DNA of 64,000 bases from positions 3,723 through 67,722 of the forward strand of contig JAYTCQ010000354.1 of assembly GCA_043736395.1 (NCBI GenBank). Reading direction: 5' to 3'. Both the position numbers and the translations under genes were made by a program. The notes under the pieces were generated by a model, which did no database searches, was not told the origin of the DNA, and worked only from the letters and a program-made list of their open reading frames with translations. Of this stretch, positions 29,008 through 53,513 are shown in pieces (position 1 is the stretch's first letter; each line of letters opens with the position of its first letter). The stretch is from Blastocatellia bacterium (GTDB taxonomy: Bacteria > Acidobacteriota > Blastocatellia > RBC074).

Positions 29008-29337
29008 TTATGCTGTTGCACTATTTTTTTGCAGAAGGGCTTCAAGCCTTTCCATGCGCTCCTCAATTTTCGTGAGAGTGCTCGCGTCGGCAGGCGGTAA
29101 TGATTTTTGCGCACTAAAAATAGGATGATTCACCCACCAGTCCATTCCCATTTCCTGGGCTTTATCAACGGAGCAAATCACCAGGCGAATTTGAATGGTA
29201 AGCAGTTCAACATCCGCCAAATTTACTTTTATGTCACCGGCAATCACGATGCCTTTGTCCAGAACACGTTCCAGAACATCAGCGAGAGTTGAACTGTTGA
29301 CGGCGTGCGTCATTGTACTATTTCGTGGTTGTATCAT
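29008..29337 (-). CDS. gvpJ: Gas vesicle protein, GvpA/J/M family (GvpJ-like with C-terminal extension).
   Basis: 'LADVLERVLDKGIVIAGDIKVNLADVELLTIQIRLVICSV' hallmark GvpA-family core; GGAG RBS. Confidence 0.8.
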   Translation of the reverse strand: MIQPRNSTMTHAVNSSTLADVLERVLDKGIVIAGDIKVNLADVELLTIQIRLVICSVDKAQEMGMDWWVNHPIFSAQKSLPPADASTLTKIEERMERLEALLQKNSATA

Positions 29338-29360
29338 TTTTTCTCCTGCACCTTTTGAGG

Positions 29361-29723
29361 CTAAAGCAATTTTCCGAGTGGTCCCAAATCCAGATTGAGG
29401 TCTTCTGGTTGTAATCCAAATTCCAAACGCAGCTTGTCAATTTCCTGCGTCTGCCGCATCAACGCTACGCCAAGGCGTTCAATACTTTCATCGTCTAATG
29501 TTTCCGATTCGATGCGCCGAATGGCTTGTCGTTCTAACAATTCATGCAAAAGCTTGATGATCGTTAACGCCAATCGTCCCAGCCCATTTTTCACATTTTT
29601 TTCGTCAAGTTCCAATCGTGAATTGCTGCCCAGACCCGAAAATAAATTCTTATCTGCCTGCAAAATACGAGCAAAGTCGCTAACAGTATCGGCGGTAGCA
29701 ATTGATGATATTTCAGAATTCAT
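29361..29723 (-). CDS. gvpK: Gas vesicle protein K.
   Basis: 'GLGRLALTIIKLLHELLERQAIRRIE' conserved GvpK core. Confidence 0.8.
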   Translation of the reverse strand: MNSEISSIATADTVSDFARILQADKNLFSGLGSNSRLELDEKNVKNGLGRLALTIIKLLHELLERQAIRRIESETLDDESIERLGVALMRQTQEIDKLRLEFGLQPEDLNLDLGPLGKLL

Positions 29724-29735
29724 TTGTCTTTTCCT

Positions 29736-29969
29736 TTACTCAATGGTTGATTGCACCTTTAAGGCTCGACCACCTTCAACTGAAGTCAGAACCAGTTGTA
29801 ATCCCAAGTAAATCAAATCTACATTCGCGACTGAAATTGTGACTTCGCCCACCACGACTGCGCCTTTATTCAATACACGATCAAGCACTTCGCACAGTGA
29901 AACATTTCCCTGCTCGTTCAGTGCTAAATTCGAAGCCAAAGCCGTTGTGTTGTAATTTTCAAAATTCAT
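29736..29969 (-). CDS. Small GvpA-family protein (GvpS/GvpM-like second structural homolog).
   Basis: 'SLCEVLDRVLNKGAVVVGEVTISVANVDLIYLGLQLVLTSVE'; its start abuts the ArsA-like stop codon. Confidence 0.7.
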   Translation of the reverse strand: MNFENYNTTALASNLALNEQGNVSLCEVLDRVLNKGAVVVGEVTISVANVDLIYLGLQLVLTSVEGGRALKVQSTIE

Positions 29970-31913
29970 TTATCGCCCCGCCGTTCGAACCATTTCGTAT
30001 TGATAAAGTGCTTTTCCCAATTCGCCAAGTTTTGACAAGCCGCGCAATTCACCCTGACGCGGAATGACGGCTTGCGGAATTCTTGGGAATGACACTTGAA
30101 ACTTCGTCTTAACAATCGCCTCGCGTGCGGCTAATGCATGGCACAAAGTGCAATCCTGTTGCGGTGTGGTCAGGTTAATAAAAATTCCTCCCACCGTGAT
30201 TTTCATTTGCTCGCACGATGCCAGCAAATCTCGTGTTTCGGCGTACGCCACTTCGGTTGGAATGCTCACGACAGAAATTCGCGCCTTGGTTCCATCAGCT
30301 AACAAAGTGCGTAATTTCTTAAGGTTTTTCGACATTTCTACTAATAACTGTGAGAGTCGCGGCAGGCGCAGCATGTTGCGATACTTCAGGAAAACACCAA
30401 AAAAAGCCTTCAACCATTGATCTATCAAAGTGGGCATTTCCAGCAAACGGATTAAATGTCCGGTAGGAGCCGTGTCGAGAACTACCACATCGTATTTCCC
30501 TGATTGATGCAGCTCAATCACGCGCAACAACGCCATCACTTCATCCAGTCCCGGCGGAGCCAGATCAATCATTCGTTCCATGACTTCGCGGTCAAAAGTG
30601 AAGTCGAGGTTTTGCATCGCAGCACTCAGGAATTTTTTCAGATCGTGGGCGTATTCTTTTTGCAAAACTTCAAATTCTGCATTCGCGTTAATTTCGAGAA
30701 CGCTCAAATTTGGGGTCACTGCTACGATTTCTGCGCCGATAGGTAGCGCAAAACAATCTGCCAATGAATGCGCCGGATCCGTCGAACATAGCAAAACTTT
30801 TTTGCCTTCTGTTTGTGCAAGTCTCATGGCTGTTGCACACGCCAGTGTAGTCTTTCCGACTCCGCCTTTCCCCGCAAAAAATAACAGGTTGGCTTTCGGC
30901 ACAGGTACGTTGCTGAAGGTGGGAAAATCATTAACCGAAGCCTTCACGCTCACCACCTCCGGCATCAATGTTAGCGGTTCCACGTCATCCCAAAAATGTT
31001 CGAGTGAATTCACTCCTCGCATTTCTTCCGGCTGCAATTCTGAGCGCCAGAAATTATATTCTTCATAACTTTGCAGCATTGCGCGAATTTCAGAATTTTG
31101 ACGCGCGTACGCTTCACGACAAGTCGCACAATCATTGTGTGGAAATAACTGATTGACGACGATCTCACTTACCGGGATTTGCAGGCGTTGTAAGGCCGTG
31201 AGTAAATCTTTTGTCTCATTGATGCTCAAAGCTTCTGCCAGCATTACTGGTACGAAGCGACACAGCTGTACATCACACAATAAGGCTTCCAGATTTTTGA
31301 CAGAGGAAGTGATCGTCAACAAAAATTGATCTAGTTCATCGCCGTAATAATTGCCACTGAACAATTTTTTCATGTAGCGATTTTTGGCTAACAGCGCATC
31401 CAGCATTCCTAACCAGCGATGCAATAATTCAGGCATTCCAAGCAATCGCAGCGTGTGCCCAGTTGGCGCAGTGTCTACAATCACGCAATCATAATTTTCA
31501 GCCGAAACCCATTCTGAGATTTCCAGAAATGCCATCAATTCATCTAAGCCAGGCAACGAAAGTTCCAGAAATTGATTGATGTCTGAATCGTCCAGAAACG
31601 TTCCGCGCTTGGCAATTTCGCGCAAATGTTCGGCGTGAAGTGCTTTGAATTTTGTCAGACATTCCTGTGCGTTGAGTTCAATGATCGTCAAATTTGACGG
31701 GATCATGCTCGCCTGTTCTCCCAATCCATCCATCAAAGAATGCGCTGGATCGGATGAAGCAATCAGGTATTTTTTTTCAGGAAAAGTTTTTGCGAGATAC
31801 AGCGCAGTCGCCAAAGCAGACGTAGTTTTCCCAACTCCACCTTTGCCACCAAAAAGCAGTAGGTGTAAATTTTGATCGTTGAGAAATGCAGGGCGCATTG
31901 GCTGATTAATCAT
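29970..31913 (-). CDS. Tandem two-domain ArsA/Get3-family P-loop ATPase embedded in the gvp cluster.
   Basis: Two halves, each with 'GGKGGVGKTT' deviant Walker A (LLLFGGKGGVGKTTSA; LLFFAGKGGVGKTTLA) and 'DTAPTGH' switch motifs. Each half carries a CxxC pair (DCATC; DCTLC) in the position of metal/client-binding Cys in Get3/ArsA. Confidence 0.8.
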   Translation of the reverse strand: MINQPMRPAFLNDQNLHLLLFGGKGGVGKTTSALATALYLAKTFPEKKYLIASSDPAHSLMDGLGEQASMIPSNLTIIELNAQECLTKFKALHAEHLREIAKRGTFLDDSDINQFLELSLPGLDELMAFLEISEWVSAENYDCVIVDTAPTGHTLRLLGMPELLHRWLGMLDALLAKNRYMKKLFSGNYYGDELDQFLLTITSSVKNLEALLCDVQLCRFVPVMLAEALSINETKDLLTALQRLQIPVSEIVVNQLFPHNDCATCREAYARQNSEIRAMLQSYEEYNFWRSELQPEEMRGVNSLEHFWDDVEPLTLMPEVVSVKASVNDFPTFSNVPVPKANLLFFAGKGGVGKTTLACATAMRLAQTEGKKVLLCSTDPAHSLADCFALPIGAEIVAVTPNLSVLEINANAEFEVLQKEYAHDLKKFLSAAMQNLDFTFDREVMERMIDLAPPGLDEVMALLRVIELHQSGKYDVVVLDTAPTGHLIRLLEMPTLIDQWLKAFFGVFLKYRNMLRLPRLSQLLVEMSKNLKKLRTLLADGTKARISVVSIPTEVAYAETRDLLASCEQMKITVGGIFINLTTPQQDCTLCHALAAREAIVKTKFQVSFPRIPQAVIPRQGELRGLSKLGELGKALYQYEMVRTAGR

Positions 31914-31931
31914 ATTTTGCGCTCATCAAAA

Positions 31932-32333
31932 TCATTCTTCATCACTGTCATCTTCATCTTCTTCATTTTCTTCGTCGTCATCGTCTTCTACCTCTTCATC
32001 CTCTTCATCACTGTCGTCTTCGTCTTCATCGTCGTCCTCATCGTCATCGTCACCATCATCTTCGTCTTCGTCATCGTCGTCCTCTTCATCGCCCTCATCA
32101 TTCGCCGCAGACTCTTCCAATGCGCTCAATCGCTCTAACAATACTGCTTCCTGTTCATCAAATTCGTCTTCGGTGATTTGTCCTGTTTCGAGCATCATGT
32201 ACAGCTCGCTCAGCGCAGTAGTAATTTGCTCAGAGGCGTTGGTTATTTCCTGCTCTGCCGCATTGCGGATTTCTCCCAGCAGCCAAAAAAAGCCGTGCAT
32301 GGGAGCCAGAAAAATGTCATCAACTAAAAACAC
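31932..32333 (-). CDS. gvpG: Gas vesicle protein G with a ~55-residue poly-Asp/Glu C-terminal tail.
   Basis: 'FLAPMHGFFWLLGEI...ITEDEFDEQEAVLLERL' fits the GvpG pattern (LL.P..G..W.GE ... I.EEEF..E..LL). Predicted GTG start (alternative in-frame ATG 11 codons later). Tail 'DEGDEEDDDDEDEDDGDDDDEDDDEDEDDSDEEDEEVEDDDDEENEEDEDDSDEE'. Confidence 0.65.
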   Translation of the reverse strand: MFLVDDIFLAPMHGFFWLLGEIRNAAEQEITNASEQITTALSELYMMLETGQITEDEFDEQEAVLLERLSALEESAANDEGDEEDDDDEDEDDGDDDDEDDDEDEDDSDEEDEEVEDDDDEENEEDEDDSDEE

Positions 32334-32362
32334 AAAAAACTTCTCGACGATTTCACAAACAA

Positions 32363-33127
32363 CTAAAATTCCAGGGCGACTTCGACAAAGTTATACGGCG
32401 CCCACGGCCCGTTAAAATCAAAGGCAAAGTTGTCATCAAACAATTCCGCTGCCGCATAAACCTGTTGCTCAAAGTTTGCTAACGAAGACCGATCCACCAG
32501 GCAAACCAGATTCATCACTTCGCGTTCCGTCCGGCAACGATTCACTTTGATTTCCGCGCAGGAATTCGTGAGTGCGTCCTCGACCTTCTCCGTGAACTCT
32601 TCCCTATCACTCGCATGCAATTGCTCAAAGAGGCGTCCAACAGCCAATTTGTCATCCTGACGCGGTTCACCTTCGCCACTGAATAAACGATCCCGCGCAG
32701 CCAGTAATTCAGGATGTAAATTGACGAAATATTCAAAAATATTCGGCACGTCCCACGTGACGCGAACGCCCATTTCTACTTTGTCTGCCACGCGTTCTAA
32801 TTGCGAAGCGAGTGCCTCGGAATTTTTTGTGAGTACTTCTTCGACGGCTTCCTGTGAATTCGCAGCGACGCCGAAAGCCATTGGTAAAACGGACAAATTT
32901 TCAGCTAATAATTTTTTCAGGACTTCCTGATGTGCGGCGAGATTTTTTCGCTGCGGCAGGATTTTTTCGCCGGAAGAATCACTCACCACAGCGGCGAATT
33001 TGCCGTTGGAAATTGTGTAGACGTGCTGACCGTTTAGACCACAATTTCCTAATTCCAGGTGGTCTTGGGCGGCGATGACGGCGTAAAGATATTTAGAACT
33101 GCGAGCGGCGGCGGCTTTGACTGACAT
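32363..33127 (-). CDS. Gas vesicle protein GvpF/L family (paralog 1).
   Basis: 'KYLYAVIAA' N-terminus and C-terminal 'NGPWAPYNFV' hallmark of GvpF/L; start at internal ATG with GGAG. Confidence 0.8.
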   Translation of the reverse strand: MSVKAAAARSSKYLYAVIAAQDHLELGNCGLNGQHVYTISNGKFAAVVSDSSGEKILPQRKNLAAHQEVLKKLLAENLSVLPMAFGVAANSQEAVEEVLTKNSEALASQLERVADKVEMGVRVTWDVPNIFEYFVNLHPELLAARDRLFSGEGEPRQDDKLAVGRLFEQLHASDREEFTEKVEDALTNSCAEIKVNRCRTEREVMNLVCLVDRSSLANFEQQVYAAAELFDDNFAFDFNGPWAPYNFVEVALEF

Positions 33128-33291
33128 GGTTTTGGGTCTCCTGTAAAACCTGCCACACAAACGGTCAGAACAAAGCGAAAACAAGGAAGGAAAACTGAAT
33201 GAATCAAAAGTTGCTCTGTTACTGAATCGCGGTGGCTCGGCGAATTTGGGTTACTGCTACTAACAACAATTTCTGTTGTTACGATCAAAAA

Positions 33292-33504
33292 TTATTTTGC
33301 TTCGGTGGCATTTCGGACTTGAGCATTCCATCGCTCAATCAACCACCAACGCCTTATTTCACGGTGCTGTAAATCAATTTCAGCATTACTATTTTCCTGC
33401 TCAGCCAGATGATCCTGCGGGACACCCGTACTCGTAGGAACCGCGCGAAACGATTTGCGATGACGATTGGTTTTGATGTGCGATGCGGTTTTTAATTTCA
33501 GCAT
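33292..33504 (-). CDS. Hypothetical small Arg/Trp-rich protein inside the gvp cluster.
   Basis: ATG start; translationally coupled to the upstream small gene (stop 33507). No known motifs. Confidence 0.3.
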   Translation of the reverse strand: MLKLKTASHIKTNRHRKSFRAVPTSTGVPQDHLAEQENSNAEIDLQHREIRRWWLIERWNAQVRNATEAK

Positions 33505-33506
33505 GA

Positions 33507-33830
33507 TTAGTATTTCAGCTTGAATGAATTATTTGCAGTGGCACTCACGCTTTTGGCGATTTGCTTGCTTCCTTCGACTGGAAGATCGTAATCGGCTGCC
33601 GCCAATTGTTTGAGGATGACAGCTTTTTCCGCATCAATTTCGCGGAAGCGTGTCCGCAATTCCTGCAATCGTTCCATCGCGCTGTCTTTTTCTTTGTTGC
33701 GACGGACTTTCTCCATTTCAAGTGCCGTCAATTTCATAAATGCTTTGTATGGACTAAAGCTACTTTCGTTACGATTGGAATGTGTACGAATGCTTTGTAA
33801 CCCGCGTAGCGTACTTTGACGTGATTTCAT
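33507..33830 (-). CDS. Hypothetical small coiled-coil protein inside the gvp cluster.
   Basis: Strong AGGAGG RBS; heptad-like 'MERLQELRTRFREIDAEKAVILKQL'. Confidence 0.45.
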   Translation of the reverse strand: MKSRQSTLRGLQSIRTHSNRNESSFSPYKAFMKLTALEMEKVRRNKEKDSAMERLQELRTRFREIDAEKAVILKQLAAADYDLPVEGSKQIAKSVSATANNSFKLKY

Positions 33831-33843
33831 TTCAGCTTTCCTC

Positions 33844-34800
33844 CTAACGACAAAATTTATGAATTAAAACATCAACTGTTTTGGGAGTAATGGTTTTCGA
33901 AGCTTTCTCGCCTTTGCCACCATCACGGCTTAGCACATCACGACAAACCCAACGGAACAATTCGTCATTGATCCGCGCATGCGAATCACGTGCAGCAATC
34001 ACGCGTGCAATCGCAATCGCAGCGCGAATTGTTGGATACGTTTGATCGTTACCGAGTGCTCGCAGTTCGTCTATGATGTTAATGATGCTGGTGGCGTCTT
34101 CGAGTTCAATGCCTGACTTCGCCATCGTGACAGCGATTTCTGTTTCGCGGTCATAATGTCCCAAATCAATGGTAATCATTCGATCTAACAACGCATCCTG
34201 CGTTTTATGGACACCGGCGTATTCTTCAGGATTTGAGGTGAAAATTGCGTGAAATTCTGGATGAACATTCATGTAGCCTTCGCCTGAGCGACGCAGCTTC
34301 GGCAAGTTCAAAATGCGCTCCGACAATACGCTGAGCAAAGCATTATTGGCTTCGGCTGGCGAGCGATTAAATTCATCGTAAATTAAAGTGTTACCATCTC
34401 GACAGGCCATCGTCAGGCGGCTGTCTACCCAATAACTTTTGACTTCATCCTGCGTTTTCACGACAGAATGAATAAAATTATCCACTAACGTAGAGCGACG
34501 ATAACCGGAGTCACGACCAATTAAATCAGCCGAACCGAATTCATCATCACCGTGAATCAGTGTGACCGGACGCGCTAATTGCGCGGCAACATGAAAAGCA
34601 AGCGTCGTCTTACCTGTTCCCGCCGGTCCGGCAAAATGTACCGGAAATCCAGCTTGCAAATAAGCGAGTGCTCGCTCAACGACGTGCGCAATTTGTGGTG
34701 TACTCACAAAACCTGAACTCGGTTCAAGTTGAAGATTTTCGTTCTCAGACTTCGTCCTTATCAAATCAGGAGAAGTTGCTGTAGAGGCGGATGCAGACAT
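33844..34800 (-). CDS. gvpN: Gas vesicle protein N (AAA+ ATPase of CbbQ/NirQ/GvpN family).
   Basis: Walker A 'GPAGTGKTT'; 'TLIYDEFNRS' Walker B region; length and order typical of GvpN. Confidence 0.85.
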   Translation of the reverse strand: MSASASTATSPDLIRTKSENENLQLEPSSGFVSTPQIAHVVERALAYLQAGFPVHFAGPAGTGKTTLAFHVAAQLARPVTLIHGDDEFGSADLIGRDSGYRRSTLVDNFIHSVVKTQDEVKSYWVDSRLTMACRDGNTLIYDEFNRSPAEANNALLSVLSERILNLPKLRRSGEGYMNVHPEFHAIFTSNPEEYAGVHKTQDALLDRMITIDLGHYDRETEIAVTMAKSGIELEDATSIINIIDELRALGNDQTYPTIRAAIAIARVIAARDSHARINDELFRWVCRDVLSRDGGKGEKASKTITPKTVDVLIHKFCR

Positions 34801-34855
34801 GCGTGGTTCTCTTGGTTGTTCTTTTCAGGCAAATATCCTGCAAAAAAATTTAGGC

Positions 34856-35605
34856 TTAGCCGGCTTTTGCGGCAGCCAATTCATGTTCAAATTCGCGGCG
34901 AAGCTTTGCGATAGTTTCGCCCTGAACATCTTCGATATGCTTGGAGACGACTTCAGCGGCCATTCTGCTGGCTTGTTCAGCGGCAGCGCGGCTAGCTTCT
35001 TCCAACCGCTTTCCAGCTTCGTTGGTTACGCGTTCGACGGCTTGCTCAACTTTGCGCGCTTTTTCAGCTCTGAGCACGGCATCAGCTTTCGCTTCTTCTA
35101 CAGCTTTCGAAGCTAACGTTGCTCTGGTTTCCGAAAGGGATTTTCCTTTAGTACGTGGCGCAGCGGCGGCAGCTTTGGCAACTGGCGCAGTTACAGCAAC
35201 TGGTCTGCTTGTGGCAGGCAAGGCAGGCTGATTCCACATCGCGCGCGCACCTGCCAGATCTTCCTGATTTTCTTCGCGGATGGCAGAAACTTCACTCTTC
35301 AATTCAGAGACAAATTCTTGCCGATCTTCTTTCGTAGTGACCGCCATTTCTGCGTGAGCAACTCGAAAGTCTTCCTGCATCGTCGCGACCTCACCAACGA
35401 GATTGGTGACGAATTCGACCCGCTCCGATTTTGATTTTTCAGCCATCTCGGCATGGTCAACACGAAAGCCTTCTTGCATCGTGACGACTTCTGCTTTTAA
35501 TTCCTGATTTTCAGCCGACAGTCTTTCGATTAACTCTCCGCGTTCGACACGCAAGTCGGCCATTTCTTCAACCAGCCGTTTCATATCATCGGTCAAGCGT
35601 CCCAT
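34856..35605 (-). CDS. GvpC-like gas-vesicle outer-layer protein candidate (33-residue tandem repeats plus Ala/Lys-rich coiled-coil tail).
   Basis: Two adjacent 33-aa repeats 'EVVTMQEGFRVDHAEMAEKSKSERVEFVTNLVG' / 'EVATMQEDFRVAHAEMAVTTKEDRQEFVSELKS'. Sits immediately downstream of gvpA, as gvpC does in cyanobacteria. Confidence 0.5.
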   Translation of the reverse strand: MGRLTDDMKRLVEEMADLRVERGELIERLSAENQELKAEVVTMQEGFRVDHAEMAEKSKSERVEFVTNLVGEVATMQEDFRVAHAEMAVTTKEDRQEFVSELKSEVSAIREENQEDLAGARAMWNQPALPATSRPVAVTAPVAKAAAAAPRTKGKSLSETRATLASKAVEEAKADAVLRAEKARKVEQAVERVTNEAGKRLEEASRAAAEQASRMAAEVVSKHIEDVQGETIAKLRREFEHELAAAKAG

Positions 35606-35659
35606 TCGATTTGCTCCTTAACTTGCACTGATTCAGGCAAAATCTTTGCTGCGTAAATT

Positions 35660-35702
35660 AGTTAAAAAAATTCCATTGACGGGAAGGAGCAAAGCTCCCT
35701 CG
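35660..35702 (-). terminator. Possible partial terminator/attenuator between gvpA and the gvpC-like gene.
   Basis: On the minus strand: GAGGGAGC-uuug-GCUCCuUC hairpin followed about 10 nt later by UUUUUUU; non-canonical spacing. Confidence 0.3.
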
Positions 35703-35733
35703 CCGACAAAGGAAATAAAAACGTTCAGTCGTT

Positions 35734-35952
35734 TTAAGCCGGTGCTGCTGCGCTGGAAGTTAATCCAATAGCTTCGGCGTACTTTAAATAAGTTTCGACC
35801 GAGGCAATCACGACACGTGCTTCAACTGACAGTAATTCAATACCGACGAGCGAGACCTTAACCCAAGCATCAATGACGATACCTTTATCAAGAATACGAT
35901 CTACGACTTCTGCCAGACTCGATGAATCCGTTGACTTCGCTATTTTAGCCAT
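35734..35952 (-). CDS. gvpA: Gas vesicle structural protein A.
   Basis: '[64 protein letters not shown]', near-canonical GvpA. Start at internal ATG with AAGGAG RBS; the ORF-track N-extension is rejected. Confidence 0.9.
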
Positions 35953-36145
35953 ATTTTCTCCTTTATGATTTTCATACTCCGGGTGGGAAAAGCTGAACAC
36001 ATCAGAAGGATGAGAAAGTCATCCCAACCACAGCTTGCTAAATCCTACTTGCAGATTTAGTGCCACAATCGGAAGGACTACAAAATATTTTTTCTGGGAG
36101 TTTTTTTGATAGCGTTGATAGACAAATAACTATTACTTCTATGTG

Positions 36146-36862
36146 CTATTTGAGTTTAGGCAGAAGCATCGCAGCAGGTAAATTTTCTGTCATCACAAAG
36201 TTGTAAGGAGGCCACGGCCCACTCGCTGAAAGCTTAACAGATTGCGGCACTATCAGGTGTCGCAACTTGTCATTCCAGGCTTCAATTTCCGTGCGTCGAA
36301 GCAAAAAATATTGCGAACATAACCAGCCATCTTCGAACCTTTTTACTTCTGTTTTTTGACGTTTGAATAACCCATCCAAAGGCGCACAGACCTCTGTCAT
36401 CATTGCCTGAAATTCGGTTGAAGGATCTTCGTAATGCCGCCGCCGTGCCGCCAGATATGCTCGACCTGAAGACACGGGTTCCGGTTCACTGACAACAATA
36501 TTCCCAATTGCTTGCGGTACAGAAATCAAAAATCGAAGCCCCATTTCAACACAATCTTCCAGTTCATCAAGGAGCGTTTCATACTGCGCCTGATGCTTCG
36601 TCAGGAAATTCATGAGTTGCGCTTCGTTATCAAACAGACAGCCGTACCGCATCGGAATCACTGTGTGTTCACGATGAAAATCTGCCACGACTTTTTCAAA
36701 TGATAATAATTGCTCAATGCTTGGAGTCGCAGAATTTTCACAGGCAGAAATAATCGCCGTCAGATTATTATTCGAGATAAAAAATACTTCTGTAGACACA
36801 GAATTCACGGAATGGATTTTCTTTTCAGAGTTGCGCAACACAGCGTAGAGCAGCAGTTTCAT
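36146..36862 (-). CDS. Gas vesicle protein GvpF/L family (paralog 2).
   Basis: 'MKLLLYAVLR' ... C-terminal 'SGPWPPYNFV'; ATGA overlap with the upstream paralog. Confidence 0.8.
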   Translation of the reverse strand: MKLLLYAVLRNSEKKIHSVNSVSTEVFFISNNNLTAIISACENSATPSIEQLLSFEKVVADFHREHTVIPMRYGCLFDNEAQLMNFLTKHQAQYETLLDELEDCVEMGLRFLISVPQAIGNIVVSEPEPVSSGRAYLAARRRHYEDPSTEFQAMMTEVCAPLDGLFKRQKTEVKRFEDGWLCSQYFLLRRTEIEAWNDKLRHLIVPQSVKLSASGPWPPYNFVMTENLPAAMLLPKLK

Positions 36863-37671
36863 GCACTTTGCTCCTTGGCTAAATTTGGAGAAAAACTATA
36901 CGGCGGCCACGCTCCGGACATCGTAAAAACAAAGCCTTTTTCTGCGTATTTCGAATTGATGCTATCAACGCGCAGTCGAAAATCTTCGCGAGATTCTTGT
37001 GGAATTAAAAATGCCCAATTCAAAATTGCTTCAAGTTCGTCGTCAGAATTCGTAACTTTTCGTGCTCGAAAATCAACGGCGGATTGACTCAGCTCCTGCG
37101 CAATTTGTACGCAGATTTCTTGTATCCATTGATTTAATTCCTGCTCTACCGCCGCCTTGATTTTTTGCTCTTGAAAATAGCGCAGCCCCGGAGAAATTGC
37201 GCCGAGCTGTTCGTCCTGTTCAGCTAATTTTTGATCCAACAATCGCTGTCTGGCTGCGACACGATTGATGCTTCCCTTGACTGAAAATTCCTGCTTGTTA
37301 TTGATGTGATGCAGGAATCCAAAAATTGTTCCGTGTTGTGTTTGAAGAAAATCTGTGACGCCGGAAGCCGTAGAAAATAACGTACCAAATCGCGCTGGTA
37401 AAACGGGAGCTTGACGCAGTTGCTCTTCGATGACTGCTTCGTGTTGCAAGGCTCGCGGAGCAATCCAGTTCAAATCTTTCATCAATTCTTCCGCTTCCGC
37501 ACCAATGAAATCAGTCAGTGGAACTTCGCTAACAATTGCGGTCAACGAATTGTATTGAAGAGCGAATAAAGGGCTGCCATCATCAAAGCCCACGCCTTGA
37601 ACTTCCGGCAGCTCTTTCGTCAGAGAAATACAAAAAAGATAAATTGCTTTGGAGGGTTGGTTGTTCGTCAT
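36859..37671 (-). CDS. Gas vesicle protein GvpF/L family (paralog 3).
   Basis: 'KAIYLFCISL' ... C-terminal 'SGAWPPYSFS'. Confidence 0.8.
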   Translation of the reverse strand: MTNNQPSKAIYLFCISLTKELPEVQGVGFDDGSPLFALQYNSLTAIVSEVPLTDFIGAEAEELMKDLNWIAPRALQHEAVIEEQLRQAPVLPARFGTLFSTASGVTDFLQTQHGTIFGFLHHINNKQEFSVKGSINRVAARQRLLDQKLAEQDEQLGAISPGLRYFQEQKIKAAVEQELNQWIQEICVQIAQELSQSAVDFRARKVTNSDDELEAILNWAFLIPQESREDFRLRVDSINSKYAEKGFVFTMSGAWPPYSFSPNLAKEQSA

Positions 37672-37747
37672 AAAATTCAGTTACAAAATGCAGCGGGTAC
37701 TGCACAAGTAACGAGAGTAATTTCTTCCGCGAAGATGGATGAATTTG

Positions 37748-47403: not shown

Positions 47404-48057
47404 TTACTGTTTGAGCTGTGCCTGAATGTCATCCTTACTGGTTCCTTTTTTTACCCAGTTAGGAACTTCATTCAAGCGTTCGCTAAGGCCCAGAACAAAG
47501 GTGCAATTTGCATCGCCGCGCGCTACACATGAAATTTCATGTGCCGCTATTGCAGAATTACTGGCGTGTGAAAACATGCCCGCTAATGCACCTGCTGCCA
47601 AATGATCAATTGGCATTCCTTTGGCGTCGCGTCCGCTTTTGGCAAACACTTCCGCGAAGGGCGTATCCGAAACCTGAGCGTAAATCAAACCTTGTTTGAT
47701 GTTGTTCAGTTCAAAGCTCAACTTGCCCCAGCCTTGCGTTCCCCAGGCTTCAACCAGCGAAGCATGAACATGTGCGGTTGGTAATTCTTCCAACGCTGAA
47801 CCGTAATACGCACTCAGCTCTTTTTCGTAGCGCTGCATTTGTCGGCGTCCCCACCATTCGCCGCATTTGTAGAGCACAACCGGCCACGCCTGCCCGCATT
47901 CATCTTCGAGGCTTTCCAATAAGCCCAGCGTAAATTCAAACGGGAATGCCACCAGGCGCGTACCGCTGCGTGAAGTGATGACGCCTTTTCCAGCGTCTAA
48001 ATCAACGTAGTCAAGATGCGAAAAATAATTCGCTTTCATGGCTGTAGCCAGACTCAT
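47404..48057 (-). CDS. V4R (4-vinyl-reductase-like) domain protein, paralog A.
   Basis: C-terminal 'EISCVARGDANCTFVLG' matches the V4R 'E..C.A.GD..C.F' signature. Start at internal ATG with GGGAGGAA RBS. Paralog of 49234-49899 (the N-terminal 'KANYFSHLDYVDLDAGKG' aligns with 'KHNYYTREDFFNFASDKG'). Confidence 0.6.
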   Translation of the reverse strand: MSLATAMKANYFSHLDYVDLDAGKGVITSRSGTRLVAFPFEFTLGLLESLEDECGQAWPVVLYKCGEWWGRRQMQRYEKELSAYYGSALEELPTAHVHASLVEAWGTQGWGKLSFELNNIKQGLIYAQVSDTPFAEVFAKSGRDAKGMPIDHLAAGALAGMFSHASNSAIAAHEISCVARGDANCTFVLGLSERLNEVPNWVKKGTSKDDIQAQLKQ

Positions 48058-48077
48058 AACGTTTCCTCCCGTACAAA

Positions 48078-48581
48078 TTAATTGGATTGCCCTGCGGCTG
48101 CGGCCTGTTCTTCCGAACACAGCACATCAATCACGACACTGACATATTGATTGATCTCTTCTGCATCTTCGGCACTCATTTCCTGACGTACCAAATCCTG
48201 CACGGTTTCATAAGTGCTGCGGACAAAGTTCGTATCAATGTCCATGGACATGAAGATCGTTTTCAACCAATACAACAACTTTTGACGAAGCATTTCCGGA
48301 TCGCCATTGACCATCGCCAAGGCGCAGTACCGTAAAACCAGCGTCACATCACGCATACCTTTTTCGGCAGCTTGAGGATGTTTTTGCGGAAAGTCAGGGA
48401 ATTTTTCAAATGACTTATCCACCGTTGCCGCCACGATATTTTTTTCCTTCTCTTCCAATCGTTGCATGATGGCGAGGCGACGTTCATACGCACGTGCAGT
48501 CTCGATGATGGTGTTATTTTCTTCAGGGGTGAAGTACCGGCCTTCGGCACTTCGCATGATGTCAGCAATTTGTCTATTCAT
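48078..48581 (-). CDS. Phycobiliprotein-fold globin-like protein (phycobilisome-protein family homolog; BBAG-like).
   Basis: 'MNRQIADIMRSAEGRYFTPEENNTIIETARAYERRLAIMQRLEEKEKNIVAATVDKSFEKFPDF...MRDVTLVLRYCALAMVNGDPEMLRQ...SAEDAEEINQYVSVVIDVL' aligns along its whole length with allophycocyanin-alpha-type sequences ('ARYLSPGELDRIKSF...GERRLRIAQTL.ENRERIVKQA...LF.K.PD...CLRDLDYYLRLVTY...GD...SAEDAAEAGSYFDFVI'). Confidence 0.7.
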   Translation of the reverse strand: MNRQIADIMRSAEGRYFTPEENNTIIETARAYERRLAIMQRLEEKEKNIVAATVDKSFEKFPDFPQKHPQAAEKGMRDVTLVLRYCALAMVNGDPEMLRQKLLYWLKTIFMSMDIDTNFVRSTYETVQDLVRQEMSAEDAEEINQYVSVVIDVLCSEEQAAAAGQSN

Positions 48582-48598
48582 AGATGGCAAAGTCCTTT

Positions 48599-49213
48599 CT
48601 AGGAGCGAGTGTTTCCGCCGTCACTGACAAGAAATTCTTCCAGCAATCCGGCAATATTTAATCCATTTGTATTGATTGAAGGGCTAGGCCATTTGGTCTT
48701 AATTGACTCAAGTGTGTAGCCTTCCTGAGATTTCGATTCTGTCATTGCGGCTGGAGCAGGCGCTTCTTCCACACCATTTCCGCTCAGCCAAGCCAAAAGA
48801 TTTTTCCAGGGTTGCACGGCAAGGCTTAATTGAAGTGCAACACGAACGGTTGAGGTCTCAACATCAGTTGCAGTCGCGAGCGCCGGAGCTGCTACAATTT
48901 CTTCGACAGGTTCTTGATACCCCGACAGAAATTGAAGTGTATCTTTCCAGGGTCTGACCGCTAATGAAAGAGATTTATTATTGATTTTCTTGATGGCCAC
49001 ATCGGTCGCAGCCGCTGAAGAAGCTTCTATGCCAGGTGCAATATCTACACTCAAAGCATGTGCCGGAGCGCCCGCCAGAGCTGCTCCGTCGAGCGAATCA
49101 GATGATAGTGCGGCATCTTTGTTTTTCGCATTATTTTCAGCGGATTCATTACTGCCTTCGCCGACAAAATCTTGCAGGAATGAACCTAGTGTTTGCGTGG
49201 GAACTTTTTGCAT
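48599..49213 (-). CDS. Hypothetical protein with two ~33-aa internal repeats (L.LAV.PWK..L.FLSG).
   Basis: 'SLSLAVRPWKDTLQFLSGYQEPVEEIVAAPALA' / 'QLSLAVQPWKNLLAWLSGNGVEEAPAPAA'; strong GGAGGTGA RBS. Confidence 0.4.
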   Translation of the reverse strand: MQKVPTQTLGSFLQDFVGEGSNESAENNAKNKDAALSSDSLDGAALAGAPAHALSVDIAPGIEASSAAATDVAIKKINNKSLSLAVRPWKDTLQFLSGYQEPVEEIVAAPALATATDVETSTVRVALQLSLAVQPWKNLLAWLSGNGVEEAPAPAAMTESKSQEGYTLESIKTKWPSPSINTNGLNIAGLLEEFLVSDGGNTRS

Positions 49214-49233
49214 AATGAGTCTTCACCTCCGGT

Positions 49234-49899
49234 TCACTCTGAAATTTTTTCGATGATTTCGGTCGCGGAAGCGCCTTCACGCAGCCAGAATTCTGCCGCA
49301 TCAATACGATTGCCTGAACCAATAATGAATTTGCAGAAATCCTCGCCCATCGCGTAACACTGCACTTCGATGCCGGAGAGATCGCGCTGTGTCAAATACG
49401 TGAAGACACCTGCGAACATTCCTGCGTAAACGTGGCAAACTGGTTTGCCAACATTGCCCAGGCTTTTCGCAACGGCACTATCGAACAGGTCAATAAAAAT
49501 CATGCCTTGCTTGCGCTGCGAAGTGTTGACCTTCCAAGCTCCCCAGCCTTCAGCCTGTAACGGCCACCACCAGGTTTCCAGAAAGAAATTCGCGTTCATT
49601 TCGCTGAGCTTTTTCCCGAATTCCGCTTCAACCATTGGCACGAAGGTTTTCATGTCCTCCAAGCCCCAGCGAAATCCTGCCTTATACATAATCATCGCCG
49701 AAGCGTCGCCGACTTCTTCTTCCAATCCTTGCTGCAATCCAACGACGAAATCTTCTGTCGCCAGAAAAGTACGCAGACCAGCGCGTGTGTGCACAGTGCC
49801 TTTGTCAGAAGCAAAGTTGAAAAAATCTTCGCGGGTATAATAATTATGTTTGATCGGCTGCTGGCCGATGATTACTTCTTGAGCGGTCATTTCGATCAT
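49234..49899 (-). CDS. V4R domain protein, paralog B.
   Basis: C-terminal 'EVQCYAMGEDFCKFIIG' V4R signature; AAGGAG RBS before internal ATG (MIEMTAQEV). Confidence 0.6.
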   Translation of the reverse strand: MIEMTAQEVIIGQQPIKHNYYTREDFFNFASDKGTVHTRAGLRTFLATEDFVVGLQQGLEEEVGDASAMIMYKAGFRWGLEDMKTFVPMVEAEFGKKLSEMNANFFLETWWWPLQAEGWGAWKVNTSQRKQGMIFIDLFDSAVAKSLGNVGKPVCHVYAGMFAGVFTYLTQRDLSGIEVQCYAMGEDFCKFIIGSGNRIDAAEFWLREGASATEIIEKISE

Positions 49900-49942
49900 T
49901 TGCAAAACTCCTTTTGTTATCCACTAAAAAATGTGCGCGGGA

Positions 49943-50428
49943 TTACATAATGCGCTCAGACGCCTGCAACATTTCGAGCACATCCGTCTCGATATTTTTG
50001 AGCGACATGATCACACTGCGCGTAATGATTTTGCCCTGTGGAATCAAGGCGACGCCTGTCACCGGATGAATAATTGTTTCATCCGCACGGCGTCCGATTA
50101 ATGATTCCAGACTGGCGAGCGACTCCAGATAAATCCCTTGTGGGACTTCGACGACACAACCATCGGCAATGATTTTCGCCTGGCAGGCAAGCCGGGAAGC
50201 GGCGGTCGTGCCGGAAATAAGTGACAAGGTTGAGATTTCACGTGGCGTTTGTGGCGATAGCGAGCCATTCCCGTCCAGCACTTTAATGTGGCAGGTGGCA
50301 CATAATCCTTTGCCTCCGCAAACTGCTTTGACGCGACCCTGTGATTGCGCCAGTAACACAGAAATTACATTGGCGCGCGTGAGAACATCTATGTCTGTTC
50401 CAATTGGTTCGATACGGATATTTTTCAT
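49943..50428 (-). CDS. Plant-type [2Fe-2S] ferredoxin with ~70-aa C-terminal extension.
   Basis: 'CGGKGLCATCHIKV ... ACQAKI' Cys ligand pattern (C-x4-C-x2-C ... C); AGGAGG RBS; ATGA overlap with the upstream gene. Confidence 0.75.
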   Translation of the reverse strand: MKNIRIEPIGTDIDVLTRANVISVLLAQSQGRVKAVCGGKGLCATCHIKVLDGNGSLSPQTPREISTLSLISGTTAASRLACQAKIIADGCVVEVPQGIYLESLASLESLIGRRADETIIHPVTGVALIPQGKIITRSVIMSLKNIETDVLEMLQASERIM

Positions 50429-50928
50429 GCTCCGCCTCCTTTAAAAAGATAAAAATTCAGTGCTTCACGTTCAATTGTTTCGGTTGGTTCTGGTGCTTCC
50501 GGCACTTCGTCTTTTTCGCCAGCCAAAATCTGCTGAAGGTAAAGATTCTTAACCAAAAAAGTTGACCTGCCAGTGGGGATTCCATCTTTGGTGAGGAGCG
50601 AAGCGGCTTGGTGATTAAAAGGAATAATTAATTGTGTGGGCAGGTCTACAGCTACCAATAAACTCAGCGAAAGAAACTCTCTTGCCCATTGCGAGGCTAA
50701 CTGGAAATCCTGCGGCTTAGCTGCCAGCTCTGGTTCGCTAACTTGAATCGTTGCCTCTTTAGACACAGAAAAAAGGTCACGCCAGACATCTGGTCGCGTC
50801 TGCCTCCAATTGTTGACGACCGAACTCCGCCCCAAATAGCCAGCAGCCATGAGCGAAATTTCGCTCAACCCTGCGGCAATCTTATCCAGCGTATTAAACT
50901 GTAAAGGGAGATATTCCATCTGTGGCAT
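50425..50928 (-). CDS. Hypothetical protein, first gene of the bilin/gvp locus.
   Basis: 167 aa; no recognisable motif; its stop overlaps the ferredoxin start. Confidence 0.35.
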   Translation of the reverse strand: MPQMEYLPLQFNTLDKIAAGLSEISLMAAGYLGRSSVVNNWRQTRPDVWRDLFSVSKEATIQVSEPELAAKPQDFQLASQWAREFLSLSLLVAVDLPTQLIIPFNHQAASLLTKDGIPTGRSTFLVKNLYLQQILAGEKDEVPEAPEPTETIEREALNFYLFKGGGA

Positions 50929-51301: not shown

Positions 51302-52444
51302 TTATTGAATCCATCCGCCGCCAACAACAACATCTTCATCAAAAAAAACCGTCGCCTGACCTGGAGTGATGGCACGTTGCGGTTCGTCGAAAGTGACGAT
51401 GACGGTGTTGTTTTCTCCAGCTCTAATTGTGGCTTCGGCTTCTTTAGCACGAGAACGGATTTTCACGGTGACACGCATTGGTTCCGTTAATTTTTCTACG
51501 GAAATCCAGTTGGGACGAACCGCAATCATTTCGCGTTTGAATAAATTTTCGTGCGCTCCGACGATGACTTGATTTTTGTCGGCATTCACTTCGACGACGT
51601 AAAGGGGATCACTGTGTGGACTCGATGGAGAAATTCCAACGCCGCGTCGTTGGCCTATTGTGTAGCGATGAATTCCTGAATGTTCGCCAATCACTTCGCC
51701 TTCTGTCGTCACGATGCTTCCGATCTGCGGAGCATTCGGACGTTTTTCGATTTGTACCAACGGCTGCGGCAAAGCTTTTTGCTCATCTAAATACCGATCA
51801 ATAAATTTTGAATAATTGCCGTCCGGGATAAAACAAATTTCCTGGCTTTCGGCCTTTTGCGCCGTCGGCAATCCTGCCGCTTCGGCGATGTCACGCGCTT
51901 CCTGTTTGCTCATTCCACCCAATGGAAACAGAGCGTAGCTCAATTGTTCCTGCGTCAATTCAAATAAAAAATACGACTGATCTTTTGCCCGATTCGGCGA
52001 GCGCAGCAGCAACCAGCGACCACGATTTTCATCGTATTTCACGCCTGCATAATGCCCGGTAGCAACTTTCTCCGCGCCAACGCTTTTCGTCATTTCGACG
52101 AGCTTATCGAATTTTAAATAGGAATTGCACGCGACGCACGGACTAGGAGTTTGACCCTGCAAATATTTATCCACGAACGGCGCGACGACATCGCGTTCAA
52201 ATTCATCTTCGAGATTTAGAATATAAAACGGGAAGCCCAATTTATTCGCTACGACACGCGCATCGTATAAATCATCCAGCGAACAACAACGCGAAGGCAA
52301 TGGTTCGCCATCTGGTCCAACATTGATGCGGCGCTGATTCCAAAGCTGCATCGAAAATCCGACCAGTTCGTGTCCTTGATTTTTTAGCAAAGCGGCAGCA
52401 GTGGAACTGTCTACGCCTCCGCTCATCGCAACAGCAATCATCAT
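51302..52444 (-). CDS. mnmA: tRNA-specific 2-thiouridylase MnmA.
   Basis: PP-loop '[11 protein letters not shown]'; catalytic Cys region 'SPCVACN'; C-terminal beta-barrel. Confidence 0.85.
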
Positions 52445-52583
52445 TTTTAATCTCAATTTGAAGCTTATTTTTCAGCTTTCAATTTTCAAATCATCGAATA
52501 TTGATGCTAAGATACAAAGACGTATTCTAGCATAAGCTTCATTCGTACTGCACAAATCCAGGCAAAGGATCATTAATTTACCC

Positions 52584-53435
52584 ATGGCAAAAAGTTCGCC
52601 TATGAATTCCAAATCGCAAGCCTCACTCACCTCTGATCAGGTCTTAGAAAAATTTCGCATCTCTTCTGAACCTTATTACTTAAATGTCAAAGAAGAAGCG
52701 AATATTTTCGAAAAAGCCTATAAATCCAAGCTGCCCGTGATGCTGAAAGGGCCAACCGGTTGCGGCAAAACGCGCTTTGTTCAGGCGATGGCGTACCGCT
52801 TGGGATTACCGCTCATCACCGTCGCGTGTCACGAAGATTTATCCGCAACTGATTTAATCGGACGCTTTTTGCTGGAAGGCGAAGAGACTGTTTGGCACGA
52901 TGGCCCATTAACTACCGCCGTACGTCACGGCGCGATTTGTTACCTTGATGAAGTCGTCGAAGCCCGCAAAGACACGATCGTTTGCATTCATCCATTAACC
53001 GATGACCGTCGTGTTTTGCCCGTCGAAAAAATCGGTGAATTACTCGGCGCGCCCGATAATTTTATGCTGGTGATTTCATACAATCCCGGCTATCAAAGCG
53101 TCCTGAAAGATTTGAAGCAATCCACCCGACAAAGATTTATTTCGCTGGAATTCGATTACCCACCCGCTGAAGCCGAAGCGCAGATTGTCGCCCGTGAAGG
53201 TGGCGTCCAGGAAAGTATTGCACGTGATCTGGTGAAAATTGGGGAGAAAGTTCGCAACCTGAAAGGTCACGGATTAGAAGAAGGCGTCTCGACGCGCCTG
53301 CTGGTGTACGCTGCGCAAATGATTTCCGCTGGCGTAGATGCAATCACCGCCTGCGAAATCGCAATCGCCAGCCCCATCACCGATGATTCCGAACTGCAAC
53401 GCGGCATCCGTGAAATTGTCACAACTGTAGTGTAA
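52584..53435 (+). CDS. CbbQ/NirQ/NorQ/GvpN-family (MoxR-like) AAA+ ATPase.
   Basis: Walker A 'GPTGCGKT'; '[11 protein letters not shown]' Walker B; ~280 aa, typical of CbbQ. Confidence 0.8.
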
Positions 53436-53513
53436 AAATGCAGGGAGCAGGGCTAAGGGAACAAGGAAATATTAATCCTTTTTCTCTCGCCCTGCTCCCT
53501 AATCCCTTTCTTT

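Follow-up and report, generated by a model that had tools for sequence, protein, structure and literature searches.

Gene content of the locus

The locus described here lies at positions 29008 to 50928 of a 64,000-nucleotide (nt) stretch of DNA, called the window in the following, from the Blastocatellia bacterium assembly GCA_043736395.1 (contig JAYTCQ010000354.1). It consists of a Pre-1-type bilin module followed, head-to-tail, by a complete two-operon Serratia-type gas-vesicle (gvp) cluster. Listing and translation of open reading frames (ORFs) gave 26 plausible genes, all on the minus strand and running from 50928 down to 29008, the same number as had been counted in an earlier note on this DNA; AGGAG-like ribosome-binding sites precede most of them. 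The ten upstream genes constitute the bilin module and encode, in this order, x27, a 2Fe-2S protein, V4R protein A (V4R-A), x24, a bilin-biosynthesis-associated globin (BBAG), V4R protein B (V4R-B), a Ser/Thr kinase, an ABM protein, a ferredoxin-dependent bilin reductase (FDBR) and a giant coiled-coil protein. The 16 downstream genes form the gas-vesicle part, which includes the junction gene g17. All array genes are given below with their minus-strand coordinates, and the labels L001-L031 denote the fetched relative loci and contigs that were compared with the window.

The genes are closely packed, with overlapping and abutting junctions as previously described: the genes for x27 and the 2Fe-2S (Fer2) protein overlap by 4 nt, gvpF1 and gvpF2 likewise overlap by 4 nt, and arsA and gvpJ abut. 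From x27 to gvpF2, a run of 15 genes, every intergenic gap is at most 86 nt, and the first large gap of the array (193 nt) follows gvpF2 and contains a sigma-54-type element. A 27th co-oriented gene, mnmA (51302-52456), is separated from the array by a gap of 373 nt, and lolA, the next gene after the end of the array at 29008, is convergent.

Profile searches with Pfam placed the genes named in the earlier note, apart from those for the GvpC-like and the giant coiled-coil protein, above the curated cut-offs, including 44658-45464 in the FDBR family (PF05996) and 48078-48581 in the phycobiliprotein family (PF00502). Three array genes had not been named there, namely those for a tandem ArsA ATPase, a CDC48-type AAA+ ATPase and an Hsp20 protein, all of which are regular members of gvp clusters of the same type (L024 and L026 compared). 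The GC content and GC3 are similar across the module, the gvp cluster and the flanks. Scans of the window for tRNA genes and for Rfam families gave zero matches, and neither island markers nor an integrase were found in it. Scans for sigma-70 promoters and terminators between 33000 and 52000 returned fewer sites than shuffled controls and are therefore uninformative on the limits of operons.

The bilin module

The FDBR (44658..45464) scored 91.6 bits against PF05996 (cut-off 31) over positions 5-228 of the 228 in the profile, and its matches among solved structures were PEBB (1e-19), PebA (5e-14) and PcyA (2e-12). Aligned to Synechocystis PcyA, it carries Ala85, Asn96 and Glu113 at the positions of PcyA Glu76, His88 and Asp105. 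This corresponds to the Pre-1 signature, in which Glu76 is missing, His88 is replaced by Asn or Thr and Asp105 by Glu; the Pre-1 enzyme MCC5789364 has Ala, Asn and Glu at PcyA positions 76, 88 and 105 (Frascogna et al. 2026, PMC13446030, Table 2), and this one enzyme performs in vitro a two-electron reduction of biliverdin to 3E-phytochromobilin. All FDBRs of the module clade of the window show Ala or Val, Asn and Glu at these sites. The sub-clade is small, with five representatives at E<=1e-30 among 1.84 billion proteins, and in a rough neighbour-joining (NJ) tree with unlabelled representatives, which gives no resolution of the deep branches, the window FDBR falls into a compact clade of 10.

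The globin (48078..48581), a phycobiliprotein paralogue, scored 90.4 bits against PF00502 (cut-off 22.2) and remained far under the NCBIfam equivalog cut-offs for phycobiliproteins (for ApcA, 47.8 versus 270 bits). It has the phycobiliprotein fold, is not of the light-harvesting type and is encoded 2.6 kb from the FDBR, and thus belongs to the BBAGs as these are delimited. A CXRD motif for bilin attachment is found in some BBAG-1 and BBAG-3 proteins, and the globins of L001, L009, L010 and L017 have CVRD at this site. Binding of bilins has been shown for other BBAGs by co-expression.

Of the two V4R proteins, V4R-A (49234..49899; PF02830 68 bits, cut-off 31) is the best conserved protein of the module, with 486 homologues at E<=1e-20 and 77-79% identity to those of L001, L009, L010, L014 and L016; one homologue, 79% identical, bears the NCBI label Blastocatellia, which together with the gene content of the flanks hints at the origin of the DNA, and a sample name points to a metagenome of a glacier-fed stream. 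V4R-B (47404..48057; 34.4 bits against the same family and cut-off) is 44-49% identical to the second V4R protein of other modules, and V4R-A and V4R-B are only 26-29% identical to each other's orthologue sets. The 2Fe-2S ferredoxin-type protein (49943..50428; PF00111 33.8 bits, cut-off 21) is 54-63% identical to the Fe-S proteins of all other modules compared and is the counterpart of the Fe-S protein in pre-PcyA clusters (PMC10151467). Two further proteins belong to no Pfam or NCBIfam family. The first gene of the module encodes x27 (50425..50928, 167 aa), whose C-terminal ~100 aa match the C-termini of proteins of 265-392 aa encoded at the same position in L001, L009, L010, L014 and L016. 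The low-complexity protein x24 (48599..49213) contains two copies of an L(A/S)V(R/Q)PWK..L..LSG motif; a variable gene of 128-224 aa occupies its position in every module seen, and x24 itself is weakly similar to those of L009 and L010.

The published pre-PcyA clusters of non-photosynthetic bacteria (Rockwell, Martin and Lagarias 2023, PMC10151467) combine the FDBR with an Fe-S protein, two V4R proteins and the phycobiliprotein-like globin known as BBAG, and often contain a haem oxygenase. The companions of the FDBR in the Pre-1 context (Fe-S protein, BBAG and V4R proteins of both clades, A and B) are all encoded in this one array. The upstream third of the array had been recognised as the pre-PcyA/BBAG context of heterotrophic bacteria, and this attribution holds both for the composition of the cluster (PMC10151467) and for the Pre-1 residues (PMC13446030, Table 2). 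The likeness to Pre-1 clusters thus consists of the 2Fe-2S protein, the two V4R types, the globin and an FDBR with Ala/Asn/Glu. In contrast to these clusters, the window has no canonical haem oxygenase and an ABM protein beside the FDBR instead, and its globin shows GMRD and not CXRD. It moreover adds the Ser/Thr kinase, the giant coiled-coil protein, x27 and x24 to the published core description, and it is fused to a gas-vesicle cluster, on which both papers are silent.

The gas-vesicle cluster

The full gvp set claimed for the downstream part was recovered, with GvpA, three GvpF/L proteins, GvpG, GvpK, GvpN and the minor GvpA-family proteins above their Pfam cut-offs. The order of the genes is collinear with that in L024 and L026, the closest gvp clusters among those inspected.

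The block upstream of gvpA begins, after g17, with an Hsp20-family protein (39899..40438; PF00011; NCBIfam Hsp20 137.9 bits, just under the cut-off of 140), which is 48-51% identical to the gene product at the same position in L024 and L026, and a CDC48-type double AAA+ ATPase (37748..39886; CDC48_N, CDC48_2 and two AAA domains), which is 70-73% identical to those of L024 and L026. In comparison with Serratia, these two genes stand in the gvpH and gvpZ slots, an equation made by position only. They are followed by the GvpF/L paralogues 1 (36859..37671; PF06386 175.7 bits; 40% identical to L024 and L026) and 2 (36146..36862; PF06386 106.3 bits).

The second block starts with the major shell protein GvpA (35734..35952), which has 72 aa when read from the ATG at 35952, is preceded by an AAAGGAG ribosome-binding site, scored 62 bits against PF00741 and is 79-88% identical to those of L010 and L016. 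The next gene (34856..35605) encodes a GvpC-like repeat protein, so designated by its position, its ~33-residue repeats and homologues at the same position only; it matched no Pfam or NCBIfam family and is 30-32% identical to the corresponding proteins of L010, L016, L024 and L026. GvpN (33844..34800), a MoxR-type AAA+ ATPase (AAA_5 65 bits), is 63-68% identical to many homologues named GvpN by their sources, 65-67% to those of L024 and L026 and 54-56% to those of L010 and L016. Two small proteins without a Pfam family follow: x9 (33507..33830), which is 45-50% identical to the product of the post-gvpN gene in L024, L025 and L026 and 30-32% to that in L010 and L016, and x8 (33292..33504), which is 41% identical to its counterpart in L024.

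GvpF/L paralogue 3 (32363..33127; PF06386 210.4 bits) is taken to start at Met20 of the listed ORF, since a ribosome-binding site precedes the ATG at 33127; the gap between x8 and this ATG is 164 nt. A listed 79-aa ORF at 33049-33288 (minus strand), rich in Pro and Ser, overlaps the 5' extension of gvpF3 and is probably no gene. GvpG (31932..32333; PF05120 59.6 bits) ends in a tail of ~70 residues that are nearly all Asp or Glu (31932-32140), which is visible both in the translation and as repeats in the DNA and is missing from the shorter GvpG proteins of L024-L026 (79-87 aa). A tandem ArsA/Get3-type ATPase (29970..31913; PF02374 411 bits in two stretches) is found at the same position in L009, L010, L016, L024, L025 and L026. 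The array is completed by a minor GvpA-family protein of the GvpJ/GvpA2-like type (29736..29969; PF00741 62.2 bits; NCBIfam GvpA, GvpM and GvpJ below cut-offs), GvpK (29361..29723; PF05121 102.4 bits) and, as the last gene, another minor GvpA-family protein of the GvpJ/GvpA3-like type (29008..29337; PF00741 64.5 bits; NCBIfam GvpJ 53.3, under the cut-off).

Recurrence of the linkage in related loci

The adjacency of module and gvp cluster is not confined to the genome of the window. Synteny comparison revealed it again in L009, L010 and L016, in two other arrangements. Together with L017, these loci form a second module lineage, whose members are 87-98% identical to each other and less so to the window (77-79% identity for V4R-A and 46-48% for the FDBR). 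In L010 (NCBI) and L016 (JGI) the gvp cluster lies upstream of the module on the same strand, while in L009 (Logan assembly) it lies downstream and is convergent. Comparison of the L009 and L010 DNA placed the rearrangement breakpoints at the module boundaries, with unrelated far flanks. The module has only one neighbour in common between the window, L009 and L010, namely the gvp cluster. Adjacency in this genome only, which the earlier note had named as a refutation, is thus not what was found; the linkage is recurrent, and it is restricted to certain lineages.

The lineages compared were the window, L001, L008/L019/L022, L009/L010/L016, L011, L014/L021 and L027-L031, counted as eight. Scans with an FDBR alignment yielded one locus in a genome collection and six loci in metagenomes, numbers that are low because the FDBR sub-clade is very small, and the linkage consequently rests on about eight lineages. 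A search of a plasmid collection with V4R-A returned only Acaryochloris plasmids, which carry the cyanobacterial version and no gvp genes. The module of the window is as distant from the second lineage (46-48% FDBR identity) as from modules without gvp genes, and L001, which has no gvp genes in its visible stretches, is the sister of the second lineage (66% FDBR identity). By pairwise identity, the gvp genes of the window resemble those of L024 and L026 more than those of L010 and L016. The adjacency goes back either to one old juxtaposition that was kept through divergence and rearrangement or to two separate juxtapositions.

A neutral explanation would be that two accessory cassettes became neighbours a single time in an ancestor, or in a shared insertion hot-spot, and that nothing has split them up since. 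The module would then have no role in buoyancy and might serve in Fe-S or redox housekeeping, as proposed for the cyanobacterial slr0144-slr0152 operon. Most module lineages indeed have no adjacent gvp cluster, the GvpN tree is compatible with a single ancestral juxtaposition, and in L009 versus L010 the module behaves as a discrete cassette of ~10 kb. However, the linkage persists at 46-48% FDBR and 54-56% GvpN identity, and it has survived a flip of the module together with a complete turnover of the neighbours on its far side. By a rough estimate of our own, a gene would lie within 10 kb of a gvp cluster by chance in about 1 of several thousand cases. No integrase, tRNA gene or shift in composition marks an island, and the module occupies the precise place of a missing regulator gene. 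Since gvp clusters are rare and small (again a rough estimate, not computed), both of the possible origins are hard to square with neutrality, and a neutral adjacency is considered unlikely.

An artificial origin, by chimeric assembly within the repetitive gene of the giant coiled-coil protein, was also weighed. Independent short contigs with an identical FDBR stop inside this gene, at residue 661, and the gene contains a 207-nt tandem duplication (43168-43581, 78% identity) that encodes two 69-residue repeats. Against this, the gene is one unbroken reading frame of over 1,170 codons, and only 17 nt separate it from the gene that follows; the short contigs do not end at the repeat; the composition is uniform; and the adjacency of module and gvp genes was seen independently in three other assemblies. 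On account of the unbroken frame, the position of the contig ends and the pairing in other assemblies, a chimera is very improbable.

The coupling to a gas-vesicle cluster had been thought to be undescribed, and the pairing was indeed not found in the literature searched. The term 'gas vesicle' is absent from both pre-PcyA papers (PMC10151467, PMC13446030) and from the 2023 supplement; no paper in the literature searched combined it with FDBR or with Blastocatellia, and the single paper combining it with V4R was unrelated. Both halves of the locus are thus of known kinds, and their pairing is new as far as this literature goes.

Promoter and missing regulators of the gas-vesicle cluster

A putative sigma-54-type promoter (-24/-12), TGGCACTAAATCTGCA, was identified by sequence match at 36050..36065 on the minus strand, 113 nt upstream of the gvpA ATG. 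It has one mismatch to TGGCAC-N5-TTGCW, and only six sites with at most one mismatch occur on both strands of the window. The same -24/-12 element is present 93-119 nt upstream of gvpA in L010, L016, L024 and L026, i.e. in five loci including the window.

In L024 and L026 the gvp cluster starts with a response-regulator/sigma-54 activator, followed by Hsp20, CDC48, GvpF, GvpF, a PAS histidine kinase, a response regulator and GvpA; after GvpA come a GvpC-like gene, GvpN, small genes, GvpF, GvpG, ArsA, GvpJ, GvpK and GvpA. The two gvp operons of Serratia are collinear with this order. The gvp cluster of the window lacks both the sigma-54 activator and the histidine kinase/response regulator pair of these relatives. 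No array gene matched the Pfam families Sigma54_activat, HisKA or Response_reg, and no GAFTGA motif was found in the six frames of the window. The activator's slot, upstream of hsp20-cdc48-gvpF-gvpF, is taken by the bilin module and g17.

The gene g17 (40456..41082) encodes an orphan protein of 209 aa at the junction, with 17-nt gaps on both sides, and stands where related clusters have their sigma-54 activator. It belongs to no Pfam or NCBIfam family and gave no tblastn match in any fetched locus. The idea that g17 is a decayed sigma-54 activator was rejected, since it has no similarity to the activators of L024 and L026 or to anything else.

Gas-vesicle regulation in cyanobacteria responds to light, and we know of no bilin-binding globin, V4R protein or FDBR in the light regulation of cyanobacterial gas vesicles or in the oxygen regulation of those of Serratia. 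In Serratia, the NtrC-like GvrA drives the sigma-54 promoter of gvpA1, with GvrB and GvrC as further requirements (PMC4982088); expression of the gas-vesicle genes depends on oxygen status, low oxygen acting as a stimulus (PMC6617781). As in Serratia, the gvp genes of the window are laid out in two blocks, one of them an accessory block that contains gvpF paralogues, and a sigma-54-type promoter precedes gvpA. The window differs in having no counterparts of GvrA, GvrB and GvrC, with the module and g17 at the position of gvrA. A further difference from the buoyancy control of cyanobacteria and Serratia is that the window shows no phototroph genes in its 64 kb; in agreement with the earlier remark that nothing else in it resembles a phototroph, zero photosynthesis genes were found in the flanks examined.

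The kinase and the giant coiled-coil protein

The Hanks-type Ser/Thr kinase (45839..47317; Pkinase 134 bits, cut-off 31.7) has a conserved C-terminal domain of ~230 aa and no evident transmembrane segment. It is 43-47% identical over ~450 aa to the kinases of L001, L008, L009, L010 and L014, and each of the eight lineages examined has a kinase in its module. The giant coiled-coil protein (41100..44615) belongs to no Pfam family and has a conserved N-terminal alpha/beta domain of ~140 aa. In L001, L008, L009 and L010, too, the FDBR is followed by a gene of 735-1353 aa, and in L014, L021 and L022 by the N-terminal domain, so that a long protein sharing this ~140-residue domain stands after the FDBR in six lineages. 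In L001 this protein ends in HATPase_c. A single-sequence AlphaFold model of the N-terminal domain had low confidence (pLDDT 50.6) and showed repeated beta-alpha units; searching solved structures with a profile gave no match, and Response_reg was not matched either. FrzS/AglZ-like proteins combine a receiver-type domain with a long coiled coil; for the window protein, a receiver (CheY-like) fold at the N-terminus would be conjectural, as the low-confidence model shows no more than a beta-alpha-beta pattern.

The kinase and the coiled-coil protein had been thought to act as a link between the module and the gvp genes. This could not be upheld, since both are conserved within modules that have no gvp genes (L001, L008, L014) and are therefore parts of the module and not connectors to the gvp cluster. 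The modules of L011 and L027, also without gvp genes, have kept the kinase and not the coiled-coil protein.

The nearest published parallel is the slr0144-slr0152 operon of Synechocystis sp. PCC 6803, which combines V4R proteins, a BBAG-type globin, an Fe-S protein and a Hanks-type kinase. It differs from the window in having neither an FDBR nor a haem oxygenase and no gvp genes, and it is linked to photosystem assembly. The operon ends with the kinase SpkG, which, according to mutant data from Synechocystis, is required for phosphorylation of the operon's own Fe-S protein, ferredoxin 5 (Fd5). The likeness of the window kinase to SpkG is that both are Hanks-type kinases encoded together with V4R, globin and Fe-S proteins; orthology is not implied.

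Further genes of signalling type accompany related modules. A PATAN (PatA_N) protein heads the module in L001 (2412-4211), L009 (7771-8634), L010 (7579-8658), L012 (451-1530) and L016 (7763-8629), and the comparison of L009 and L010 revealed that the spacer upstream of its gene travels with the module; the window has no such gene. Regulators of motility and pattern formation are among the proteins that contain PATAN domains. Sigma-54 activators or histidine kinases adjoin the module in L011 and L014.

A different account of the locus would assign the two halves parallel functions with shared expression and no signalling between them. Cells lifted into light and oxygen by their gas vesicles would then need the product of the module, either a pigment-protein that protects or absorbs light or a bilin that acts as an antioxidant, and both halves would have stayed together because they serve under the same conditions and are inherited or transferred as a unit. 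In favour of this, the module is packed together with the gvp accessory operon in the window and merely adjacent to the gvp cluster in L009, L010 and L016; BBAGs bind bilins and yet are photoinert; and haem cleavage needs O2. On the other hand, the kinase, the PATAN protein, the coiled-coil protein ending in HATPase_c and the sigma-54 regulators nearby look like signalling and not like pigment production, BBAGs are poor in chromophorylation and fluorescence, and this account gives no reason why the three gvp regulators were all lost at the very place of the module's insertion. Parallel functions of this kind are thus regarded as rather improbable.

Several variations among the related modules were recorded in addition. 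In L014, a response-regulator/sigma-54 activator and two histidine-kinase-type genes lie directly upstream of the module (350-3758), and a CbiA/ParA-like ATPase gene stands between the kinase and the FDBR; such a gene is found beside the kinase in L027, too. The module of L011 (2596-4880 and 12022-19023) is more distant from that of the window; its FDBR is Thr/Thr/Asp and hence Pre-3-like, a CarH-like B12-binding MerR regulator and a sigma-54 activator adjoin the module, and the module is followed by a 1815-aa UvrA-like protein and not by the coiled-coil protein.

Source of the bilin

Neither the array nor the other examined parts of the window yielded a canonical haem oxygenase (PF01126). The ABM-fold protein (45476..45784; PF03992 53 bits, cut-off 23.1), whose gene lies 11 nt upstream of the FDBR gene, is a candidate for an IsdG-like haem-cleaving enzyme. 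Its subfamily is encoded always directly upstream of FDBRs of the window's clade where seen, which is the place held by a canonical haem oxygenase in L011; haem oxygenases are present in the modules of both L011 and L027. The pairing of an ABM gene with the FDBR was also observed in the relatives L008 (4246-4554), L018 (1049-1357), L019 (2421-2729) and L023 (891-1199).

Among solved structures, the named matches of the ABM protein are mostly haem-degrading enzymes (HmoB, IsdI, IsdG, MhuD); the best match is uncharacterised, and the matches to characterised haem-degrading enzymes are weak (E 6e-4 or worse). The likeness to IsdG, IsdI, MhuD and HmoB thus comprises the ABM fold, the retained haem-ligating His and these matches. 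In contrast to IsdG-type enzymes, Ser6 and Tyr63 replace the catalytic Asn and Trp of the Asn/Trp/His triad, with His75 at the third position, and Ser, Tyr and His are invariant in five homologues of the window subfamily. For this alignment the IsdG sequence was entered by hand, and TT1380 was taken from the solved-structure matches. IsdG-type enzymes are not known to form biliverdin. Haem cleavage by haem oxygenases requires O2. Cleavage of haem by the ABM protein of the window is possible, and it is put forward as a lead and not as a finding.

A possible coupling of bilin chemistry to buoyancy

From the gene context, it is proposed, as the most likely reading, that bilin chemistry is functionally coupled to buoyancy at this locus; we assign to it a probability of about 0.45. 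It builds on the composition and tight packing of the locus, the retained sigma-54-type promoter, the missing regulators and the recurrence of the adjacency. We infer that the adjacency of module and gvp cluster has been kept by selection since the two systems work together. In this scheme a haem-cleaving enzyme, possibly the ABM protein, would supply a bilin, which the FDBR would reduce with electrons from the 2Fe-2S protein of the cluster; the expected product is 3E-phytochromobilin, as this is the product of the characterised Pre-1 enzyme. The globin, together with the V4R proteins, would hold the bilin, and the loaded or unloaded state of the globin could report light, O2 or reducing power. 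This state could reflect oxygen because the cleavage of haem needs O2. The kinase and the coiled-coil protein might relay this state to the assembly of gas vesicles and hence to buoyancy. In the window, the two systems may in addition be coupled by co-transcription of the module with hsp20-cdc48-gvpF-gvpF, and the sigma-54 activator that gvpA would still need is presumably encoded elsewhere. Parts of signalling type are consistent with such a relay, i.e. the kinase in all eight lineages, the PATAN protein, the HATPase_c end of the coiled-coil protein in L001 and the sigma-54 activators or histidine kinases beside the module in L011 and L014.

A more specific version of the coupling is possible and at present doubtful: the BBAG/V4R/Fe-S/kinase module would be a bilin-based sensor that took over the control of gas vesicles from GvrA, GvrB and GvrC in some non-phototrophs, and it would read either light or, via bilin synthesis, O2 or reducing power.

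Several observations weigh against a coupling. The support for it is gene context throughout. No gvp genes were seen in the visible DNA of L001, L008, L011, L014/L021, L022 and L027-L031, that is in at least six module lineages, so that the module evidently does not depend on a gvp cluster next to it. Module and gvp cluster of the second lineage are separated by ~350 nt, or the module is convergent with the gvp cluster, which speaks against co-transcription there, and in the NJ tree of GvpN both lineages sit on long branches, with a bootstrap of 47/100 for their joint clade. The globin of the window has GMRD in place of CXRD and therefore no Cys at this motif, with Arg and Asp retained. Characterised BBAGs are photoinert and weakly fluorescent in vitro, and their chromophorylation is poor; their photoinertness does not favour a simple photoswitch. 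The ABM protein has neither the Asn nor the Trp of the IsdG triad, so that it is a doubtful source of the bilin. Finally, the action of SpkG on Fd5 is a precedent for a kinase substrate inside the module and not among gvp proteins.

Significance of the linkage

The function of BBAGs was described as 'not yet known' by the authors who defined them and their pre-PcyA partners, and these proteins are thought to be the stock from which phycocyanobilin synthesis and the phycobiliproteins of cyanobacteria arose. That the genes of this module recurrently lie beside those for a buoyancy organelle is the first clue from gene context to what BBAGs do in the cell. If the sensor interpretation were true, BBAGs would have their first known function, and phycobiliprotein-like globins would have sensed vertical position before becoming antenna pigments. 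The finding is of interest both because the function of BBAGs is acknowledged to be unknown and because a heterologous test is easy: E. coli is able to express gas-vesicle clusters, with flotation or opacity as a simple read-out, so that the hypothesis is directly testable.

For gas-vesicle biology, a cluster that has kept its sigma-54 promoter and has had its own activator replaced by the module points to an unrecognised form of regulation, and a switch that responds to bilins, light or oxygen could serve those who use gas vesicles as acoustic reporters. Independently of any coupling, the published cluster is extended by a Ser/Thr kinase and a giant coiled-coil protein and, in some lineages, by a PATAN protein or by an ABM protein that replaces the haem oxygenase.

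Flanking genes

The genes identified in the flanks of the array encode GGT, BipA, MacB, LolA, MnmA, an ECF sigma factor, a Ser/Thr kinase, an Oar-like outer-membrane barrel and peptidases. Small stand-alone genes for HNH endonucleases occur twice, at 11560-11913 (plus strand) and 56652-57098 (minus strand), and one of them sits between an ECF sigma-factor gene and a Ser/Thr kinase gene. On the plus strand at 52584-56645, a gene for a CbbQ/NorQ-type MoxR ATPase is followed by one for a 1043-aa protein with a C-terminal VWA domain, a pair resembling the CbbQ/CbbO or NorQ/NorD activase systems, with no target enzyme nearby. Thg1-like proteins are uncommon in bacteria; a homologue of the Thg1-like tRNA-His guanylyltransferases adjoins a small AAA_33 kinase-like protein at 57443-58652 (plus strand). 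Further downstream on the same strand (58710-61124), an 804-aa fusion protein combines a serine beta-lactamase-type domain with NamZ exo-N-acetylmuramidase domains.

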